Origin: a virus
Lineage: Duplodnaviria > Heunggongvirae > Uroviricota > Caudoviricetes
IMG/VR virus record: IMGVR_UViG_2609459852_000021
DNA length: 25,763 nucleotides
Direction: 5' to 3' (one strand)
Part shown: one piece after another, positions 1,636 to 25,763 of the stretch
How the letters are laid out: the number at the start of each line of letters is the position of its first letter
Numbering within the stretch: position 1 is the stretch's first letter
Position numbers and translations under genes: made by a program
Notes under the pieces: generated by a model
Told to the model about the DNA's origin: nothing
Database searches by the model: none
The model's input: only the letters and a program-made list of their open reading frames with translations

Positions 1636-5315
<3,680 letters not shown>

Positions 5316-5336
<21 letters not shown>

Positions 5337-6636
5337 TCTCCCGCATATTGCCAGCATGGCCTTTAATGAGCCGCTGATGCTTGACCCCGCCTATGCGCGG
5401 GTTTTCTTTTGTGCGCTTGCAGGCCAGCTTGGGATCAGCCGCCTGACGGATGCGGTGTCCGGTGACAGCCTGGTTGCCGGAGAGGTACCCGCGACGCTGG
5501 CGTTATCCGGTGATGATGACGGACCACGACAGGCCCGCAGTTATCAGGTCATGAACGGCATCGCCGTGCTGCCGGTGTCCGGCACGCTGGTCAGCCGGAC
5601 GCGGGCGCTGCAGCCGTATTCGGGAATGACCGGTTACAACGGCATTATCGCCCGTCTGCAACAGGCTGCCAGGGACCCGATGGTGGACGGCATTCTGCTC
5701 GATATGGACACGCCCGGCGGAATGGTGGCAGGGGCATTTGACTGCGCTGACATCATCGCCCGTGTGCGTGACATAAAGCCGGTATGGGCGCTGGCCAATG
5801 ACATGAACTGCAGTGCAGGGCAGTTGCTTGCCAGCGCCGCCTCCCGGCGTCTGGTCACGCAGACCGCCCGGACAGGCTCCATCGGCGTCATGATGGCTCA
5901 CAGTAATTACGGTGCTGCGCTGGAGAAACAGGGCGTGGAAATCACGCTGATTTACAGCGGCAGCCATAAGGTGGATGGCAACCCCTACAGCCATCTTCCG
6001 GATGACGTCCGGGAGACACTGCAGTCCCGGATGGATGCAACCCGCCAGATGTTTGCGCAGAAGGTGTCGGCATATACCGGCCTGTCCGTGCAGGCTGTGC
6101 TGGATACCGAGGCTGCAGTGTACAGCGGTCAGGAGGCCATTGATGCCGGACTGGCTGATGAACTTGTCAACAGCACCGATGCGATCACCGTTATGCGTGA
6201 TGCACTGGATGCACGTAAATCCCGTCTCTCAGGAGGGCGAATGACCAAAGAGACTCAATCAACAACTGTTTCAGCCACTGCTTCGCAGGCTGACGTTACT
6301 GACGTGGTGCCAGCGACGGAGGGCGAAAACGCCAGCGCGGCGCAGCCGGACGTGAACGCGCAGATCACCGCTGCGGTTGCGGCAGAAAACAGCCGCATTA
6401 TGGGGATCCTCAACTGTGAGGAGGCTCACGGACGCGAAGAACAGGCCCGCGTGCTGGCAGAAACCCCCGGTATGACCGTGGAAACGGCCCGCCGCATTCT
6501 GGCCGCAGCACCACAGAGTGCACAGGCGCGCAGTGACACTGCGCTGGATCGTCTGATGCAGGGGGCACCGGCACCGCTGGCTGCAGGTAACCCGGCATCT
6601 GATGCCGTTAACGATTTGCTGAACACACCAGTGTAA
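5316..6636 (+). CDS. C: prohead protease C (S49/ClpP-like), GTG start
   Basis: In-frame match to lambda gpC starting (V/M)TAELRNLPHIASMAF; GTG at 5316 preceded by GAGGAGGAG; the listed ORF 5182-6636 is the same frame extended upstream to an earlier ATG inside B. Confidence 0.88.
6241..6636 (+). CDS. nu3: scaffolding protein Nu3, nested in-frame within the 3' end of C
   Basis: Internal ATG at 6241 (MTKETQSTTVSATASQ...) preceded by AGGAGGG; shares frame and stop with C, as recalled for lambda Nu3. Confidence 0.7.
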   Translation: MTKETQSTTVSATASQADVTDVVPATEGENASAAQPDVNAQITAAVAAENSRIMGILNCEEAHGREEQARVLAETPGMTVETARRILAAAPQSAQARSDTALDRLMQGAPAPLAAGNPASDAVNDLLNTPV

Positions 6637-19868: not shown

Positions 19869-20468
19869 ATGCGTAAATTATGTGCTGTTATTCTGTCCGC
19901 AGTAGTCTGGCTGGTTGCCGCTGGTACGCCAGCGAGCGCAGCAGAGCATCAGTCCACACTAAGCGCCGGGTATCTTCAGACTCATACTGATATGCCAGGC
20001 AGTGATGACCTGAAGGGCATTAACGTGAAATACCGTTATGAATTTACGGACACGCTGGGGCTGGTGACGTCATTCAGTTATGCCAATGCCAAAGATGAGC
20101 AAAAAACGCATTACAGCGATACCCGCTGGCATGAAGATTCAGTGCGTAACCGCTGGTTCAGCATGATGGCGGGGCCATCTGTACGCGTGAATGAATGGTT
20201 CAGTGCTTATGCGATGGCAGGTGTGGCTTACAGCCGTGTTTCGACGTTCTCCGGGGATTATCTCCGCGTAACTGACAACAAGGGGAAAACGCACGATGTG
20301 CTGACCGGAAGTGATGACGATCGCCACAGCAACACGTCTCTGGCGTGGGGAGCTGGCGTGCAGTTTAACCCGACCGAATCCGTGGCCATTGATATTGCTT
20401 ATGAAGGCTCCGGCAGTGGCGACTGGCGCACTGACGGTTTCATCGTGGGTGTCGGTTATAAGTTCTGA
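19869..20468 (+). CDS. lom: outer membrane protein Lom (Ail/Lom family)
   Basis: 199-aa ORF with a signal peptide (MRKLCAVILSAVVWLVAAGTPASA) and C-terminal ...GFIVGVGYKF, matching lambda Lom; bracketed by terminator hairpins. Confidence 0.9.
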   Translation: MRKLCAVILSAVVWLVAAGTPASAAEHQSTLSAGYLQTHTDMPGSDDLKGINVKYRYEFTDTLGLVTSFSYANAKDEQKTHYSDTRWHEDSVRNRWFSMMAGPSVRVNEWFSAYAMAGVAYSRVSTFSGDYLRVTDNKGKTHDVLTGSDDDRHSNTSLAWGAGVQFNPTESVAIDIAYEGSGSGDWRTDGFIVGVGYKF

Positions 20469-20494: not shown

Positions 20495-20521
20495 AGCCCG
20501 CCGGTTCAGGCGGGCTTTTTT
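20495..20521 (+). terminator. rho-independent terminator downstream of lom
   Basis: AGCCCGCC-GGTTCA-GGCGGGCT 8-bp stem followed by TTTTTT. Confidence 0.65.
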
Positions 20522-20532
20522 GTGGAGTGGAT

Positions 20533-22911
20533 ATGGCAGCAGTAAAAATCTCAGGTGTGCTGAAAGATGGTGCGGGAAAACCAATACAGAACTGCACTAT
20601 TCAACTGAAGGCAAAGCGTAACAGCACCACGGTACTGGTGAACACGGTGGCCTCTGAAAATCCGGATGAAGCCGGGCGTTACAGCATGGACGTTGAGTAT
20701 GGTCAGTACAGCGTCATCCTGTGGATTGAGGGTTCTCAGCCATCACATGTTGGGACCATTACCGTCTATGAAGGTTCCAGTCCGGGGACGCTGAATGATT
20801 TTCTCGGTGCCATGACGGAAGATGATGTCATGCCGGAGGCATTGCGCCGTTTTCAGGCAATGGTGGAAGAAGCGGCACGCAACGCCGAAGCCGCCTCTCA
20901 GAGCGCAGCGGCGGCAAAGAAATCCGAAACTGCAGCGGCATCATCGAAGAACGCGGCGAAAACCTCAGAAACGAATGCAGCTAATAGTGCACAGGCGGCA
21001 GCGACCTCAAAGACTGCATCGGCAAACTCCGCGACAGCAGCCAAAAAATCAGAAACCAACGCGAAAAATAGCGAGACAGCCGCAAAGACGAGCGAAACCA
21101 ACGCAAAGTCCAGCCAGACGGCAGCGAAAACCAGCGAAACGAATACCAAAGCCAGTGAAACTGCGGCGAAAAACAGCCAGGATGCAGCGGCCCAAAGCGA
21201 GAGTGCCGCAGCTGGTTCTGCAAGTGCGGCGGCTTCTTCTGCCACTGCATCAGCCAACAGTCAAAAAGCTGCAAAAACCAGCGAAACTAACGCAAAGTCC
21301 AGCCAGACGGCAGCGAAGACCAGCGAAACGAATGCCAAAGCCAGCGAAACTGCGGCGAAAAACAGTCAGGATGCAGCAGCCCAAAGCGAGAGTGCTGCAG
21401 CTGGTTCTGCAAGCGCGGCGGCTGCTTCTGCCACTGCATCAGCCAACAGTCAAAAAGCAGCAAAAACCAGTGAAACCAATGCAAAGACAAGCGAGACTGC
21501 AGCGGCGAACTCGGCGAAAGCATCGGCAGCAAGCCAGACAGCAGCTAAAGCAAGTGAAGACGCAGCCAGAGAGTATGCAAGTCAGGCAGCAGAGCCGTAT
21601 AAATATGTCTTACAGCCACTGCCTGATGTGTGGATACCATTTAACGATTCACTGGATATGATTACGGGCTTTTCGCCATCTTATAAAAAGATTGTTATTG
21701 GTGACGACGAAATAACGATGCCTGGTGACAAGGTGGTTAAGTTTAAACGCGCATCAAAAGCAACTTACATTAATAAATCTGGTGTGCTGACAGAGGCTAC
21801 CATTGACGAGCCACGATTTGAACGTGATGGCCTGCTTATTGAGGGGCAAAGAACGAACTTCTTCCCGAACAGTACAGACCCTTCGAAGTGGAATAAGTCA
21901 ACTTCACTGGACGTTACAGAAACAGGCACAGATAGTTTCGGTTTTAATTATGGCCGGTTTGTCGTACAGGATTCGATTGTTGGTACAAGTAAAGCGCATA
22001 CCATTATCGGACTGTATTCGAGTACCGGAGGGGTTGATACTTCAGGGGACGAAAAGTATGTAACTATATCCTGTCGGGTAAAAAGTGAAGTTGATAATAT
22101 CGACGTTCGTATTTTATTTGAACATTATGATGGGGAGGTAAGGACATCAATAGGAACAGCAAGCCTGAACCTTACCACCCGCATAATTAGCAAGACAGGT
22201 CAGACAAGCCGTGTTACAGCAAGGTCTGTTAAGGATGATGCAACTGGCTGGATATTTTTTGAGGCTACATTAAAAGCAGATACAACAGAAAATACGGTTG
22301 GTGGTTTCGTCCAGTATTCTCCGGATACAGGTCAGATGGTGGCATCAGGGGATTGTCTCGATGTAACCACTCCCCAGATTGAGGCTGGTACAGGCGCATC
22401 ATCTTTTATTGTTACGGGGGCTGCACCGGTAACGCGGGCAAGCGATATAGTTACAGTCCCAATTAAGAATAATCTTTATAATCTACCTTTTACGGTTCTT
22501 TGTGAGGTACATAAGAACTGGTATAAAACGCCAAATGCAGCACCGCGTGTTTTTGATACCGGCGGTCATCAAACCGGAGCGGCTATTATTCTTGGCTTCG
22601 GTTCTTCAGCAGATTACGACGGATTTCCTTATTGCGATATTGGTGGGGCTAACAGGCGGATAAACGAAAATGCATCGCTTGAAAAAATGGTTATGGGGAT
22701 GCGTGTAAAGTCAGATCAGTCTACATGCGCAGTAAGTAACGGGCGTATATCCAGCGAAACAAAAACCACATGGTCCTGTATTCAGAACTCCGCAATTATC
22801 CGTATTGGAGGCCAGACTACAGCCGGTTTACGCCATTTATTTGGTCATGTCAGGAATTTCAGAATATGGCACAAGGCATTGACTGATGCTCAGGTGGGGG
22901 AGTTAATCTAA
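20533..22911 (+). CDS. stf: side tail fibre protein (lambda Stf-like N-terminus, Ala/Ser/Thr-rich repeat shaft, non-lambda C-terminal receptor-binding region)
   Basis: N-terminus MAAVKISGVLKDGAGKPIQNCTIQLKA... matches lambda Stf; shaft built of SETNAK/TAAKTSE-type repeats; the C-terminal ~430 aa lacks the His-rich lambda tip and ends ...FRIWHKALTDAQVGELI (possibly a LamG/ConA-like jelly roll). Start at ATG 20533; an in-frame GTG lies at 20527. Confidence 0.88.
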   Translation: MAAVKISGVLKDGAGKPIQNCTIQLKAKRNSTTVLVNTVASENPDEAGRYSMDVEYGQYSVILWIEGSQPSHVGTITVYEGSSPGTLNDFLGAMTEDDVMPEALRRFQAMVEEAARNAEAASQSAAAAKKSETAAASSKNAAKTSETNAANSAQAAATSKTASANSATAAKKSETNAKNSETAAKTSETNAKSSQTAAKTSETNTKASETAAKNSQDAAAQSESAAAGSASAAASSATASANSQKAAKTSETNAKSSQTAAKTSETNAKASETAAKNSQDAAAQSESAAAGSASAAAASATASANSQKAAKTSETNAKTSETAAANSAKASAASQTAAKASEDAAREYASQAAEPYKYVLQPLPDVWIPFNDSLDMITGFSPSYKKIVIGDDEITMPGDKVVKFKRASKATYINKSGVLTEATIDEPRFERDGLLIEGQRTNFFPNSTDPSKWNKSTSLDVTETGTDSFGFNYGRFVVQDSIVGTSKAHTIIGLYSSTGGVDTSGDEKYVTISCRVKSEVDNIDVRILFEHYDGEVRTSIGTASLNLTTRIISKTGQTSRVTARSVKDDATGWIFFEATLKADTTENTVGGFVQYSPDTGQMVASGDCLDVTTPQIEAGTGASSFIVTGAAPVTRASDIVTVPIKNNLYNLPFTVLCEVHKNWYKTPNAAPRVFDTGGHQTGAAIILGFGSSADYDGFPYCDIGGANRRINENASLEKMVMGMRVKSDQSTCAVSNGRISSETKTTWSCIQNSAIIRIGGQTTAGLRHLFGHVRNFRIWHKALTDAQVGELI
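21085..21462 (+). repeat. perfect-frame tandem duplication, 2 x 189 bp (63 aa), inside stf; partial third unit to about 21490
   Basis: Units starting at 21085 and 21274 are near-identical at nucleotide level and encode KTSETNAKSSQTAAKTSETN(T/A)KASETAAKNSQDAAAQSESAAAGSASAAA(S/A)SATASANSQKAA twice. Confidence 0.85.
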
Positions 22912-23192
22912 TGAAAGATTTAACACTCAAATTTGTCGACAGGGCCGACTTTTCGGCCTTTATGGAGAGCATTGGCTATTATGATGACGAGTCGATGCAG
23001 GATGATATTCTTATTGACGTGATAGGTAATGTGTACAAAGAAACCGGAGAACTTACTGAAGATGGCGAGCCGGTATGTGTTAAGGAGGACGGATATTTTG
23101 TAAGCGTGCGCATCATTAATGATGCAAAAAAATCGTCAATATTCGATAAATACGCGATTGTTGTTGAGCATCAACTTCGTGGCTGGATGTGA
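22911..23192 (+). CDS. hypothetical acidic protein, 93 aa (possible tail-fibre chaperone or accessory protein)
   Basis: ATG overlaps the stf stop by 1 nt (TAATG); about 20 Asp/Glu against 10 Lys/Arg; no family recognised. Confidence 0.55.
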   Translation: MKDLTLKFVDRADFSAFMESIGYYDDESMQDDILIDVIGNVYKETGELTEDGEPVCVKEDGYFVSVRIINDAKKSSIFDKYAIVVEHQLRGWM

Positions 23193-23201
23193 GGGAGACA
23201 A

Positions 23202-23906
23202 ATGGCTACATCGACAGTAATTCCTGATGACATCAAAACGCTAAAGGGAGATGTCAGTAAAGCCAAGGAAGATATTTCCTCAATTAACGGAAAAGTATCA
23301 ACGCTTCAGACTGATATGACCAGTGCAAAGCAGGATATCAGCTCCAGATACACAAAAACTGAAGTTGATAATAAGCTGAAAAACAAACTGGAAGTGAACG
23401 CTCTGGAAAGCGGTCGTTATGGTGGAGATTTTTACCCGCTGACTGGCCGTGAAGCGTTTTATTTGTGGGGATTGGGCACGACTACAGCGGCGGCAAACCT
23501 TTATCTTAATCCTGACTCCGCAATTTCGTCTGTACTGCGGTCAACATCGTCTATCCGCTATAAAGATTCAGTAGAGACAATAGATTCAGAGCACGCCGAT
23601 CTCATTTTCAGGATGCGCCCTGTGTGGTACAGGTCGCAATGCGAAAATGACAGGCGTGACTGGGGATTCTACGGATTGATTGCCGAGGAAGTAGGAGAAA
23701 TTGCCCCTCAGTTTGTACACTGGCGACCAGCTAACGAGAATGATGCTCCTGAAGCTATTTCCAGCAATGGCCTTGTTGCCGAAGGTGTAATGTACGAACG
23801 TCTGGTTGTTCCACTGATTCACCATATCCAGAAACTGACTGAAAGAGTTGATGAACTTGAGTCAGAATTAAAGCTGTTATCAACTTCCCGAAGCGATATC
23901 GGATAA
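23202..23906 (+). CDS. small tail-fibre-like protein with C-terminal intramolecular chaperone (peptidase S74-like) domain
   Basis: RBS GAGGGAG; N-terminal heptad/coiled-coil segment (DIKTLKGDVSKAKEDISSINGKVSTLQTDMTSAKQDISS); C-terminal half carries S-x-x-R-x-K (SSIRYK), RPVWYR, GFYGLIAEEVGEIAPQFV, GVMYERLVVPLIHHIQKL and a terminal coiled coil, which I recall as the endosialidase/T5 pb1 chaperone-domain signature. Confidence 0.6.
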   Translation: MATSTVIPDDIKTLKGDVSKAKEDISSINGKVSTLQTDMTSAKQDISSRYTKTEVDNKLKNKLEVNALESGRYGGDFYPLTGREAFYLWGLGTTTAAANLYLNPDSAISSVLRSTSSIRYKDSVETIDSEHADLIFRMRPVWYRSQCENDRRDWGFYGLIAEEVGEIAPQFVHWRPANENDAPEAISSNGLVAEGVMYERLVVPLIHHIQKLTERVDELESELKLLSTSRSDIG

Positions 23907-23916
23907 AGGAGGAGTA

Positions 23917-24210
23917 ATGGATATAAGCCCCTTACTTCATGCACTTTGTGCTGTGGCTGCGCAGACACTGGTTGGTCTTTTTACCGGAAACTGGGCTTAC
24001 GGAGCGATAGCCGGTTGTGCGTTCTTCATTGCGCGTGAACACACCCAGGCAGAATATCGCTGGATTGAAATGTTCGGGCATGGCAAGCGAATGAATATGC
24101 CGTGGTGGGGCGGTTTTGATCCGCGCGCGTGGGATGTGGCAAGCCTGATGGATTTTGCTGTGCCGGTGGTGGCGTGTCTGCTGGTCTGGCTGTTGGTTAA
24201 TCGTGGGTGA
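23917..24210 (+). CDS. small membrane protein, 97 aa, about 3 predicted TM helices
   Basis: Strong RBS AGGAGG; hydrophobic segments PLLHALCAVAAQTLVGLFTG, AYGAIAGCAFFIA and FAVPVVACLLVWLLV; no family recognised. Confidence 0.5.
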   Translation: MDISPLLHALCAVAAQTLVGLFTGNWAYGAIAGCAFFIAREHTQAEYRWIEMFGHGKRMNMPWWGGFDPRAWDVASLMDFAVPVVACLLVWLLVNRG

Positions 24211-24220
24211 AAAAAGGTGA

Positions 24221-24349
24221 GCTGTATATGCAACGGAGGAAGAAACCTCGTTGCGGGAAGCCTGGAAGAAGTATCGGGTGTTGCTGAACCGTGTTGATAC
24301 ATCAACTGCACCTGATATTGAGCGGCCTGTGAACCCTGTCAGGGAGTAA
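24221..24349 (+). pseudogene. tfa: 3' remnant of a tail fibre assembly gene (tfa), no start codon
   Basis: Frame opens directly after a TGA and encodes ...[39 protein letters not shown], the conserved C-terminus of lambda-family Tfa proteins. Confidence 0.6.
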
Positions 24350-24363
24350 TCATTGGGATTATG

Positions 24364-24396
24364 CCGCAGCACGTCTTAAGCAAGAACGTGCTGCGG
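24364..24396. terminator. 10-bp stem-loop between the tfa remnant and the 3' end of the methyltransferase gene (possible bidirectional terminator)
   Basis: CCGCAGCACG-(13-nt loop)-CGTGCTGCGG; a T-run (TATTTTTT) follows about 10 nt downstream on the + strand, so the terminator call is weak. Confidence 0.35.
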
Positions 24397-24403
24397 TTGG
24401 ATG

Positions 24404-25072
24404 CTATTTTTTCCCTGAAGCGGAAAACATTACTACAGTACCTTGAACCTTGGTTTTAACATTCTCGAAATGCTCTGAGAGTATATGTGTTAAGCCTTCT
24501 TCGGAATCTTTTGTGTTTGAAAAGATGCCTTTCTGATTGTAAATGCGCATCAGTTTTTGACCGAAGCTATTGTGCACAACTCCATCGCCAAGAATTGTGG
24601 CTCCGTATAGAGTTCCATCGTCAGTTAAGGCCTGCGCCGCATTGCGTATTACACAGCTTTTTGTAGATATATTTCCAGGCAGGCAGTGAAGAAGGTAAAA
24701 CATGGAAATGGAATCAAATTGACCATGTAACGTCGCGGGATAAGGTTCAAAAACATCATGGCTAATTTTATGTTTAATTTTTGATTCCCCAGCCCTTGTA
24801 GATGCCGCGTTCAGGCTAGCTTCGTTCAAATCCATTAAAGATATCAGACTACTCTCAGGTACGTGAGTAAGGTAAAACCCAGTTCCAACACCAATATCCA
24901 GATGGTTGTTACCTAAATGTTCCAGAAAGTGTGGAAGAAGGTGTTCCTTTGTAGGACATCCCCATGCAAGCCGATTTGATACTCCCAAAACCCACCAGTC
25001 ATAAAGCTTTAGGGTAAGTGGTGTGTAAATTTTAGCCCCATCATCTGTGTTTTTTTTCATTAATTTCACCAT
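24404..25072 (-). CDS. class I SAM-dependent methyltransferase, substrate unknown (probable start at 25060, MKKNTDD...)
   Basis: Minus-strand ORF with Rossmann motif I LDIGVGTGFY, an acidic post-I strand (SLMDLNEAS) and FDSISMFYLLHCLP; no DPPY/NPPY or Pro-Cys motif, so it is unlikely to be a DNA methyltransferase; AT-rich. Confidence 0.75.
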   Translation of the reverse strand: MVKLMKKNTDDGAKIYTPLTLKLYDWWVLGVSNRLAWGCPTKEHLLPHFLEHLGNNHLDIGVGTGFYLTHVPESSLISLMDLNEASLNAASTRAGESKIKHKISHDVFEPYPATLHGQFDSISMFYLLHCLPGNISTKSCVIRNAAQALTDDGTLYGATILGDGVVHNSFGQKLMRIYNQKGIFSNTKDSEEGLTHILSEHFENVKTKVQGTVVMFSASGKK

Positions 25073-25128: not shown

Positions 25129-25398
25129 ATGCTGCCGCAGCATAGCGATATTGAAATAGCCTGGTATGCTTCGATACAGCAGGAGCCGAATGGCTGGAAG
25201 ACCGTCACCACACAGTTCTACATCCAGGAATTCAGTGAGCATATTGTGCCACTTCAGGATGCTGTAGATCTGGAGATCGCAACGGAGGAAGAAAACTCGT
25301 TGCTGGAAGCCTAGAGGAAGTATCGGGTGTTGCTGAACCGTGTTGATACATCAACTGCACCTGATATTGAGTGGCCTGCAAATCCTGTCAGGGAGTAA
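25129..25398 (+). pseudogene. tfa: truncated tfa-like gene with in-frame amber codon at 25312-25314
   Basis: Encodes [91 protein letters not shown]; the amber codon falls where Tfa homologues have Trp (TGG); the frame opens immediately after a TAA, so the N-terminus is much shorter than in the 194-aa lambda Tfa. Confidence 0.55.
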
Positions 25399-25448
25399 TC
25401 ATTGGGATTATGCCGCAGACACGTCGTATGCAGGAACGTGCTGCGGTT
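25262..25448 (+). repeat. direct repeat copy 2 (tfa 3' end plus downstream hairpin)
   Basis: About 90% identical to 24215-24398; includes an imperfect hairpin at 25413-25446. Confidence 0.8.
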
Positions 25449-25514: not shown

Positions 25515-25763
25515 TTAGTGAACAAACCACTCGTCAGCAGACTCCCAGGTATCTTTCAGAGTTTCCTGAACAAAAGTTTTAGCTGAATCTTTATCGGCGG
25601 TGCGCGTAACAGAAAGGCCATCGTTGCTGGTGGCTTTTACGATCACCTCTACATCGTCATAACGTTTACTGATGCGTCGGGTTAATTCTTCCTTTAACGC
25701 ATCCACAGCACCGGTTGGCATTTTAGTCATTTTTTCTTTGGCTATGCAGATTTCAATACGCAT
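25515..25763 (-). CDS. DinI-like protein
   Basis: 82-aa minus-strand [40 protein letters not shown]...[15 protein letters not shown] resembling the DinI family; start codon sits at the last three bases of the window, so the upstream region is not visible. Confidence 0.8.

Follow-up and report, generated by a model that had tools for sequence, protein, structure and literature searches.

A lectin-type side tail fiber and the three small genes behind it in a lambdoid prophage: candidates for three exchangeable modules

Genes at the Tail Operon's Distal End

The IMG/VR record IMGVR_UViG_2609459852_000021 is a stretch of viral DNA of 25,763 nucleotides (nt) assigned to the Caudoviricetes, and "the window" refers here to that stretch at its full length. 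A side tail fiber gene (stf) in this window is followed by three small genes encoding proteins of 93, 234, and 97 amino acids (aa). The three genes occupy the usual site of the tail fiber assembly gene (tfa), of which a 3′ stump alone remains. This region forms the far end of the late (tail) operon in a lambdoid prophage that sits beside dusA. An identical region in Escherichia coli chromosomes is the right end of such a prophage, with the order J, lom, stf, the three genes, the tfa remnant, a convergent S-adenosylmethionine (SAM)-dependent methyltransferase gene, a second tfa fragment, a dinI-like gene, integrase, and dusA. Coordinates are collected in Table 1.

The three genes, their junctions, and their ribosome-binding sites had been described in an earlier note drawn from the letters of the sequence, and all of these were confirmed in the raw sequence. 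The stop codon of stf and the start codon of the 93-aa gene overlap by one base (TAATG), while gaps of 9 and 10 nt precede the 234-aa and 97-aa genes, respectively. Shine-Dalgarno-like runs are found 8 nt upstream of the first ATG (GGGGGAG) and 4 nt upstream of each of the other two genes (GGGAG and AAGGAGG). All three open reading frames (ORFs) are intact and conserved across many genomes. Since the median ratios of nonsynonymous to synonymous substitution rates (dN/dS) against relatives are also low (0.28, 0.29, and 0.33 in gene order), the ORFs are real genes under purifying selection rather than chance frames.

The same note characterized the products as an acidic protein, a coiled-coil protein with an intramolecular-chaperone domain, and a membrane protein, which agrees with an isoelectric point of 4.31, an S74 match, and a hydrophobic three-helix model, respectively, and it was also right about the stf gene having been re-tipped and about the tfa site. 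Its description of the whole block as AT-rich holds in part: GC content is 44% in the stf tip, 41% in the 93-aa gene, and 45% in the 234-aa gene, against 57% in J and 54% in the stf shaft. The 97-aa gene, at 55%, does not fit the description. The profile and structure searches that it proposed returned the S74 domain for the 234-aa protein, PHROG families only for the other two, and no informative fold match for the 93-aa protein. The view that the 93-aa and 97-aa proteins could not be placed therefore needs qualification: both belong to PHROG families (1361 and 1443), yet neither family is characterized and neither has a specific structural relative.

A crude consensus scan found no plus-strand sigma-70-like promoter site between positions 20300 and 25763. 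With no such site detected from stf through to the 97-aa stop codon, these four genes resemble a single late transcription unit. A strong terminator-like hairpin (8 bp, of which 7 are GC, followed by a T run) is present at 20495–20516, between lom and stf. Late transcripts can extend into stf and the genes behind it only if the polymerase passes this hairpin.

Table 1. Features of the stf region, in window coordinates.
Feature	Position	Strand	Basis
stf, 794 aa: lambda-type tail-attachment N-terminus, Ala/Ser/Thr-rich repeat shaft, replaced tip	20527–22911	+	PF08400, PHROG 1419
Lectin-type fiber tip	21835–22911	+	NF048003, PDB 6tb9, C-terminal motif, BASEL homolog
93-aa acidic alpha/beta protein, PHROG 1361	22911–23192	+	Location after lectin-type tips in at least six lineages; dN/dS 0.28
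234-aa protein, putative short distal ("branch") fiber: docking peptide aa 1–16, coiled coil ~10–65, small head ~66–114, S74 115–234	23202–23906	+	PF13884, LtfA match
Putative N-terminal docking motif MATSTVIPDDIKTLKG, consensus MxTxTxIPxDIxxLK	23202–23249	+	Common to otherwise unrelated distal fibers
S74 chaperone region, predicted self-cleavage before Ser115, Lys120 partner (TSSIRYK)	23544–23906	+	Pfam start at residue 116; LtfA alignment
97-aa three-helix inner-membrane protein (predicted), PHROG 1443	23917–24210	+	Model, invariant columns, contexts
tfa 3′ remnant, last 39 codons	24230–24349	+	Translation; PGAP: "tail fiber assembly protein, incomplete, missing N-terminus"
Hairpin, 11 bp, GC-rich, between tfa stump and convergent methyltransferase gene	24363–24396		Direct sequence read

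The Side Tail Fiber and Its Tip

The stf product combines an attachment region of lambda type with a replaced tip. Residues 5–134 match the tail-attachment domain PF08400 (E = 9e-64), which places the protein among proximal fibers, and the full length matches PHROG 1419 ("tail protein"). The replaced tip spans aa ~370–794. Within it, residues 437–638 form a GTA head-spike-fiber-like domain (NCBIfam NF048003, 69.2 bits against a cut-off of 36), and the tip also matches PDB 6tb9, the RcGTA head spike fiber (E = 8.7e-6). The C-terminal region is LamG/galectin-like and closes with a motif, RHLFGHxRNxRIWHKxLTDxQ, that is conserved in every tip class. A "galectin-like domain" is likewise mentioned in the BASEL description of the homologous fiber of phage IrisVonRoten (PMC11990801). 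Neither a Tfa domain nor an intramolecular chaperone (IMC) domain was found in stf in the Pfam search.

Replacement of the tip is evident from a comparison with relatives, in which the N-terminus and shaft are 92–94% identical at the nucleotide level, yet the tips are just 41–45% identical. The shaft itself contains internal direct repeats of ~190–250 nt (21048–21504; peptide units of the SETNAK/AAKTSE type), which appear as off-diagonal blastn matches in every relative. Unequal recombination at these repeats could alter shaft length.

The 93-aa Protein as a Proposed Partner of the Lectin-Type Tip

The 93-aa protein contains 20 Asp and Glu residues against 10 Lys and Arg. It matches PHROG 1361 from end to end (E = 7.4e-45; residues 1–93 on profile positions 1–92 of 92), a family without an annotated function, and it had no match in Pfam, NCBIfam, or PADLOC. 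Its structure model, with a predicted local distance difference test score (pLDDT) of 82, is a generic alpha/beta sandwich, and a structure search with this model found no specific or informative fold neighbor. The family is small, amounting to 68 clusters at 50% identity in a search of 1.84 billion proteins. No natural fusion of the 93-aa domain to a fiber or to another protein was found in that search, in which the long hits were weak matches to acidic repeat proteins.

What distinguishes this family is its location. Homologs with 33–88% identity occur in 181 phage records, always directly 3′ of a lateral or side tail fiber gene and usually overlapping it. They come from lambdoid phages, phage 21 among them, and from Drexlerviridae, Dhillonvirus, Queuovirinae, T5-like phages, and rV5-like phages. 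Every examined fiber upstream of a homolog bears a tip composed of the GTA head-spike and LamG/galectin-like domains, and the tip family, present in 205 phage records, has the same taxon breakdown as the 93-aa family.

A natural exchange in rV5-like phages is instructive. Fiber gp26 of JeffSchatz and gp41 of rV5 are 91% identical over 1049 aa and differ at the C-terminus only. The rV5 allele has a K1F-type chaperone end and lacks the small gene, whereas the JeffSchatz allele has the lectin-type tip followed by the small gene. Judged from such comparisons, the tip and the 93-aa gene behave as a cassette. Because the accessory tracks the type of tip across lineages (a cis-acting chaperone, Tfa, or the 93-aa protein), the 93-aa protein can be read as a functional replacement of Tfa, and most likely it fills the role of Tfa or of a cis-acting chaperone for the lectin-type tip. 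Virion proteomics of rV5 had been considered as a test of the small protein being structural and was unusable, as rV5 lacks the gene.

The correspondence between protein and tip does not extend to fine co-variation. Across 82 loci, the identity of the 93-aa protein and that of the tip are uncorrelated (Spearman ~0). Among loci with 93-aa proteins at least 85% identical, 40 have tips below 60% identity and 37 have tips of at least 90%; 93-aa proteins that are 95–98% identical are found behind tips sharing 41–45% identity. PhiR49_2 presents the reverse case, with a tip 81–86% identical and a small protein only 39% identical. Co-variation was equally absent when the last 30, residues 31–150, and residues 150–400 from the stf end were considered separately, and the 93-aa gene is itself mosaic. 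A recurrent variant of the protein that is 97 aa long, and is distinct from the membrane protein of that length, differs in its C-terminal ~20 residues (…SISLVYVSAAGPFGCHSPVATG). One cluster of this variant is present on 96 contigs, and the variant probably represents a widespread allele created by a frameshift or a deletion.

A different role for the 93-aa protein would be that of a structural joint rather than a chaperone. As such it would be a connector, comparable to gp35 of T4, seated on the stf tip and gripping the N-terminal peptide of a second, distal fiber, and the gene order (stf, 93-aa, 234-aa) would mirror the physical order. This is regarded as doubtful. The gene is kept in three contexts without a distal fiber (phage 21, PhiR49_2, and the rV5-like JeffSchatz). 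In addition, the stf C-terminus is conserved in every tip class and so is not partner-specific, and adjacent genes can be co-inherited through linkage alone, with the 93-aa gene being mosaic in any case. The two roles are not mutually exclusive, and a Tfa-like partner of the tip might also act as a joint.

The 97-aa Membrane Protein

The 97-aa protein has a grand average of hydropathy of +0.5, and its structure model (pLDDT 95) comprises helices at residues 4–23, 26–53, and 74–96. Its match to PHROG 1443 is again close to complete (E = 4e-57; residues 1–96 on profile positions 1–96 of 97) and again to a family of unannotated function; Pfam, NCBIfam, and the PADLOC defense models gave no match. 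The family consists of 585 clusters at 90% identity, all named hypothetical. Nineteen columns are invariant, most of them polar, including H8, R40, E41, Q44, E46, Y47, and R58, and the invariant His, Glu, and Arg residues may form a small catalytic or metal-binding site. Two minus-strand ORFs that overlap the gene (23932–24372 and 23997–24311) were set aside, as the plus-strand product belongs to a deeply conserved family.

Members of this family occur in a range of contexts. For example, the gene directly follows the small gene in phage 21 and PhiR49_2, overlaps the tailspike stop by 4 nt in the P22-like phage JEP4, overlaps the tfa stop by 4 nt in the Halomonas myovirus phiHAP-1, and lies after gpJ in a Comamonas prophage. 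Aeromonas carries it as an isolated gene on the chromosome, and in sphingomonads and other alphaproteobacteria it adjoins ligA or other housekeeping genes. An NAD-dependent DNA ligase gene lies directly upstream in 4 of 40 upstream neighborhoods, all in alphaproteobacterial genomes. These neighbors are a hint that the family may serve the cell in some conserved way. Among phages that share the fiber tip, the gene is present in all 45 lambdoid loci with enough downstream sequence and in none of the five virulent phages that have the same tip and small gene. A different fiber locus, in rV5, also encodes a small protein annotated as "membrane protein" (gp29, 88 aa, between the tail fiber genes gp30 and gp28; positions 1938–2204 of that locus).

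In view of the fiber-independent contexts, the chromosomal copies, and the absence from the virulent phages with the same fiber, the 97-aa protein is taken to be a captured cellular membrane-protein family and not a fiber accessory. From its position and distribution, the best guess is a moron-type role directed at the host envelope, either in exclusion or in the protection of progeny. Two results count against such a role: the protein has no similarity to the Cor, Llp, Sie, or Imm families, and expression in the lysogen, which classical exclusion needs, is unsupported, as the consensus scan detected no promoter of the gene's own.

The lack of a detected promoter fits a second possibility, namely that the protein serves the lytic cycle, either by modulating lysis or by blocking the synthesis or export of a glycan receptor so that virions escape from debris. 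Coupling of its translation to late receptor-binding genes in three morphotypes (through the 4-nt overlaps in JEP4 and phiHAP-1 and the 10-nt gap here) is consistent with this, and the invariant polar residues H8, R40, E41, E46, Y47, and R58 suggest a specific target or a catalytic site. A lytic role is nonetheless considered unlikely. Virulent phages that use the same fibers would face the same problem and lack the gene, chromosomal copies exist outside phages, and nothing resembling holins, spanins, or established receptor blockers turned up in searches of Pfam, PHROGs, and NCBIfam.

The 234-aa Protein as a Proposed Minimal Distal Fiber

The domain organization of the 234-aa protein would suit a very small fiber. 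Residues 10–65 give weak matches to coiled-coil families, and behind this region the C-terminal half is an S74 domain (Peptidase_S74, PF13884, matched by residues 116–172 at 27.1 bits against a cut-off of 22; profile positions 1–57 of 58). The protein matches the C-terminal end of PHROG 3299 (positions 1147–1384 of 1385) and the N-terminal 32 positions of PHROG 4563. The first of these matches raised the possibility that the ORF is the leftover 3′ end of a long fiber gene, which is excluded by its dN/dS of 0.29 and by stand-alone homologs of 200–245 aa with 57–61% identity in ~45 virulent Drexlerviridae.

The best PDB match is the C-terminus of LtfA of phage DT57C (8hqz). In the alignment, T114-S115-S-I-R-Y-K120 coincides with TSGIEYK of LtfA, so that both a Ser and a Lys five residues downstream of it are present. 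These we take to be the Ser-x4-Lys dyad, with an assignment and a spacing carried over from endoNF and the S74 family. The alignment predicts self-cleavage of the 234-aa protein before Ser115. A conserved S74 cleavage motif has been noted previously (PMC4728585).

The N-terminal 16 residues are shared more widely than the rest of the protein. The motif heads proteins of 234, 245, 346, 351, and 574 aa in five lineages, each encoded after a 93-aa homolog. Carriers include the 346/351-aa fibers of E. coli prophages, phage 2G7b, and the Nonagvirus ESCO3, as well as the T-shaped Gp24 of IrisVonRoten (574 aa), tunus gp83, and KarlBarth gp30. Across all 72 close loci, identity in the distal N-terminus does not fall below 75%, although the body may belong to the 234-aa type or to an unrelated 346-aa type. 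A pattern scan of viral contigs recovered at least 116 such N-termini, and all 115 that could be tested among the matches listed are positioned 9–12 nt downstream of a 93-aa homolog. Interchangeable fibers that have kept one N-terminal segment in common bear a docking signature, and for this reason the first 16 residues are read as a docking peptide. The same argument was made for LtfB of DT57C (PMC4728585). Docking has also been modeled between the proximal and T-shaped fibers of IrisVonRoten, whose distal fiber bears an IMC (PMC11990801). On this basis the 234-aa protein is read as a minimal distal or branch fiber.

Several points weigh against this reading or against that of the 93-aa protein as a chaperone. 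The part before the cleavage site has 114 residues, which is very short for a receptor-binding protein, and no receptor-binding domain was recognizable in it in the Pfam and PHROG searches. The Drexlerviridae homologs in KarlJaspers and PeterMerian are annotated in BASEL as "putative lateral tail fiber chaperone". The counts of the motif survey refer to matches listed and are dominated by E. coli prophages. Finally, the distal fiber never occurs without the small protein among those matches, which would fit an adaptor role of the latter as well as a chaperone role.

If the BASEL annotation were correct, the 234-aa protein would be a chaperone acting in trans, with its S74 domain aiding trimerization of stf, and not a fiber of the virion. 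The brevity and featurelessness of the first 114 aa would then be expected, and stf, which has neither Tfa nor IMC, would gain an assembly factor. Nevertheless, S74 domains are established as acting in cis, on the chain N-terminal to them (PMC4728585), the same N-terminal peptide heads proteins of 346–574 aa with clear receptor-binding domains (IrisVonRoten Gp24 among them), and tips of the stf family work in phage 21 and JeffSchatz, which have no gene of the 234-aa type. Because S74 acts in cis and the tip works without the 234-aa gene, a distal fiber is likelier, and a chaperone acting in trans is quite improbable.

Prevalence, Assortment, and Exchange

The full block is found frequently. 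When a 2-kb query covering it was compared with 5426 complete E. coli genomes, 229 contained at least 80% of the query, and isolated lambdoid phages (PhiR49_1 and IdasGreatGrand) also carry all three genes. Taken singly, two of the parts are more frequent: 988 of these genomes have the 93-aa gene and 1906 have the 97-aa gene, with as many as seven copies in one genome. The unrelated 346-aa fiber takes the place of the 234-aa gene in roughly one close relative out of three, and phage 21 lacks the 234-aa gene.

Alignment against relatives places breaks in similarity at ~21820–21963, 22398, and ~22800, all within stf, and at ~23245–23261 and ~23905. These boundaries delimit the stf N-terminus and shaft; two segments of the tip; a conserved junction made up of the stf end, the 93-aa gene, and the first 15–20 codons of the distal fiber; the distal fiber body; and the 97-aa gene with the tfa stump. 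The blastn boundaries suggested that the conserved junction might be a co-adapted module in its own right. This was rejected, since the C-terminal motif is found in all tip classes, the 93-aa gene is mosaic, and recombination at conserved sequence explains the boundaries equally well.

Exchange crosses phage lifestyles. Positions 22398–23261 of the window are 93% identical over 864 nt to positions 4967–5830 of the virulent Nonagvirus vB_EcoS_ESCO3, a stretch that takes in the last ~170 codons of stf, the 93-aa gene, and 20 codons from the start of the fiber gene behind it. Such identity indicates a recent exchange of fiber parts between temperate and virulent phages, and it bears out the suspicion that the tip region had been acquired horizontally.

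The broader proposal of the earlier note, a single co-adapted adhesin module, is not borne out by these data: tip and 93-aa protein show no correlation, the 234-aa gene is swapped or absent, and the 97-aa gene is found in contexts independent of fibers. On survey the block proved to be largely a common annotated arrangement with no co-variation with the fiber tip. What remains of the proposal is an accessory factor belonging to the new tip, in the form of the 93-aa protein as a Tfa-like partner, while the 234-aa and 97-aa genes assort on their own. That the three genes were acquired horizontally as one co-adapted accessory set for the new tip, perhaps with an undescribed mechanism, is very unlikely in spite of their tight coupling in an apparently single transcription unit, the recurrence of the full block, and the low GC content common to the tip, the 93-aa, and the 234-aa genes, because the genes assort independently and do not co-vary with the tip, and because the 97-aa gene differs in GC content and has a distribution that does not depend on phages. 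In terms of comparative genomics, the block consists of three separately assorting modules and is not one new adhesin system.

Proposed Explanation and Significance

The explanation favored here, with a probability of roughly 0.55, is that the region consists of three exchangeable modules: a tip with its 93-aa partner, a minimal distal fiber, and a captured membrane protein. In the first, a lectin-type tip would stand in place of the Tfa-dependent tip of lambda, and the 93-aa protein would be the dedicated partner of this tip family, either as an assembly factor acting in trans or as a small subunit that remains on the tip. It would serve the lectin-type tip as Tfa serves the lambda tip, or as a C-terminal intramolecular chaperone serves tips of the T5 and K1F types, and it may also offer a platform on which a second fiber docks. 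In the second module, the 16-residue N-terminal peptide would anchor the 234-aa protein, with either the stf tip or the 93-aa protein as the docking site. The docked fiber would be a trimeric coiled coil with a head of ~50 residues, folded as a trimer by the S74 domain, which would then cut itself off before Ser115. The third module would derive from a widespread proteobacterial family, captured by temperate phages and placed after the last receptor-binding gene. Its product would act on the host envelope, in superinfection exclusion or in protection of progeny, and not in virion assembly.

A more far-reaching proposal follows for the two uncharacterized families jointly. The 93-aa family may be an unrecognized class of trans-acting factors (chaperone, docking platform, or both) for lectin-type tips in at least six coliphage lineages, and the 97-aa family a new host-derived inner-membrane effector that is coupled to receptor-binding genes and either excludes rivals or protects progeny. 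This joint proposal is put forward tentatively, at somewhat worse than even odds. A literature search that included work on chimeric lambda Stf engineering and on exclusion proteins found no paper on either family, and it is the roles of these two families that stay undescribed in the literature.

Side and lateral fibers set the range of strains that can be reached, and they are swapped in the engineering of phages and phage-derived delivery particles. If the 93-aa protein is needed for assembly of lectin-type tips or for the second fiber, transplants of such tips onto lambda-type particles must include its gene, which would make a useful rule when host range is engineered. Roughly one in three complete E. 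coli genomes encodes the 97-aa family, and several copies are often present. If its members alter the envelope or block superinfection, they would contribute very widely, and so far unnoticed, to the phage resistance of natural E. coli. As the evidence stands, the main message is that fiber parts are exchanged freely between temperate and virulent phages.

The tfa Remnant and Flanking Features

The tfa remnant is called a partial pseudogene by the Prokaryotic Genome Annotation Pipeline (PGAP) in an identical E. coli genome. The hairpin that follows it is a possible end of the late transcript. The terminator scan was silent on this hairpin, whose loop is too long, and picked up a second copy at 25429–25445.

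Both the tfa 3′ end and the hairpin belong to a direct repeat (24230–24398 and 25279–25448; 140 nt at 94% identity plus 29 nt at 90%). The repeat brackets a gene for a class I SAM-dependent methyltransferase on the minus strand (24404–25072), and its second copy is part of a longer, frameshifted tfa fragment (~25129–25398). The arrangement suggests that the methyltransferase gene is a moron whose insertion duplicated the end of tfa, and the same layout is found in phage 2G7b. At the prophage end (25515–25763), the dinI-like gene and the integrase beside dusA point to dusA as the locus of integration, which it also is in E. coli O166:H15 and strains related to it.

Comparison with Known Systems

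The relationship to the Stf/Tfa system of lambda is apparent from the PF08400 attachment domain, the place of stf after J and lom, and the retained tfa 3′ remnant. The difference is that the tip is replaced and no intact Tfa is present; none of the 93-, 234-, and 97-aa proteins matched a tail-fiber-assembly family in Pfam, NCBIfam, or PHROGs. With the K1F endosialidase and the L-shaped fiber pb1 of T5, the 234-aa protein shares a C-terminal domain that belongs to PF13884 and has the Ser...Lys motif at its start. In contrast to those proteins, the part ahead of the chaperone is 114 aa long, and the domain belongs to a separate gene product instead of the end of a long fiber.

Prophages can carry exclusion or conversion genes at the ends of tail operons, such as Cor (phi80 and N15), Llp (T5), gp15 of HK97, and SieA and gtrABC of P22. 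The 97-aa protein resembles these in its small size, its membrane location, and its place beside receptor-binding genes in temperate phages. Searches of Pfam, PHROGs, NCBIfam, and PADLOC showed no sequence similarity to any of them, and its family differs in having chromosomal members outside phages and no detected promoter of its own.

In the long tail fiber of T4 (gp34-gp35-gp36-gp37), gene order equals physical order, and the gene of a small non-fibrous protein lies between those of the proximal and distal parts. The likeness of the 93-aa protein to the gp35 joint is one of analogy only, as the two share neither sequence nor fold similarity and the 93-aa protein also occurs without a distal fiber.

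Fibers of more than one protein are well established. The BASEL papers note lateral fibers of one, two, or more proteins, and DT57C provides a further case. In DT57C and DT571/2, the primary fiber LtfA bears a second fiber, LtfB, by means of the conserved N-terminal segment of the latter (Golomidova 2016, PMC4728585; Ayala 2023, PMC10713586), and C-terminal S74 chaperones are common to that system and the present one. As differences, LtfA carries an IMC of its own together with an internal docking region akin to gp14 of phiEco32, the docking peptides are of different families, and no small intervening gene has been described.

The closest parallel is the T5-like phage IrisVonRoten (Bas32), in which Gp22 is the proximal fiber, Gp23 a small protein, and Gp24 the T-shaped distal fiber (Humolli et al. 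2025, PMC11990801). The gene order is the same and the parts are homologous: the proximal tip is 63–75% identical to the stf tip, and the 92-aa product of the small gene is 36% identical to the 93-aa protein. The distal fiber begins with MVTKTVIPTDITKLK and ends in an intramolecular chaperone. IrisVonRoten differs in its T5-type attachment N-terminus, where that of the window is of lambda type, and in its distal fiber of 574 aa with two receptor-binding domains, where the 234-aa protein has none that is recognizable. It also lacks the 97-aa membrane gene, and its small protein is not discussed in the published description (PMC11990801). The window is a lambdoid member of this known multi-protein fiber architecture, and the arrangement is a very common one.

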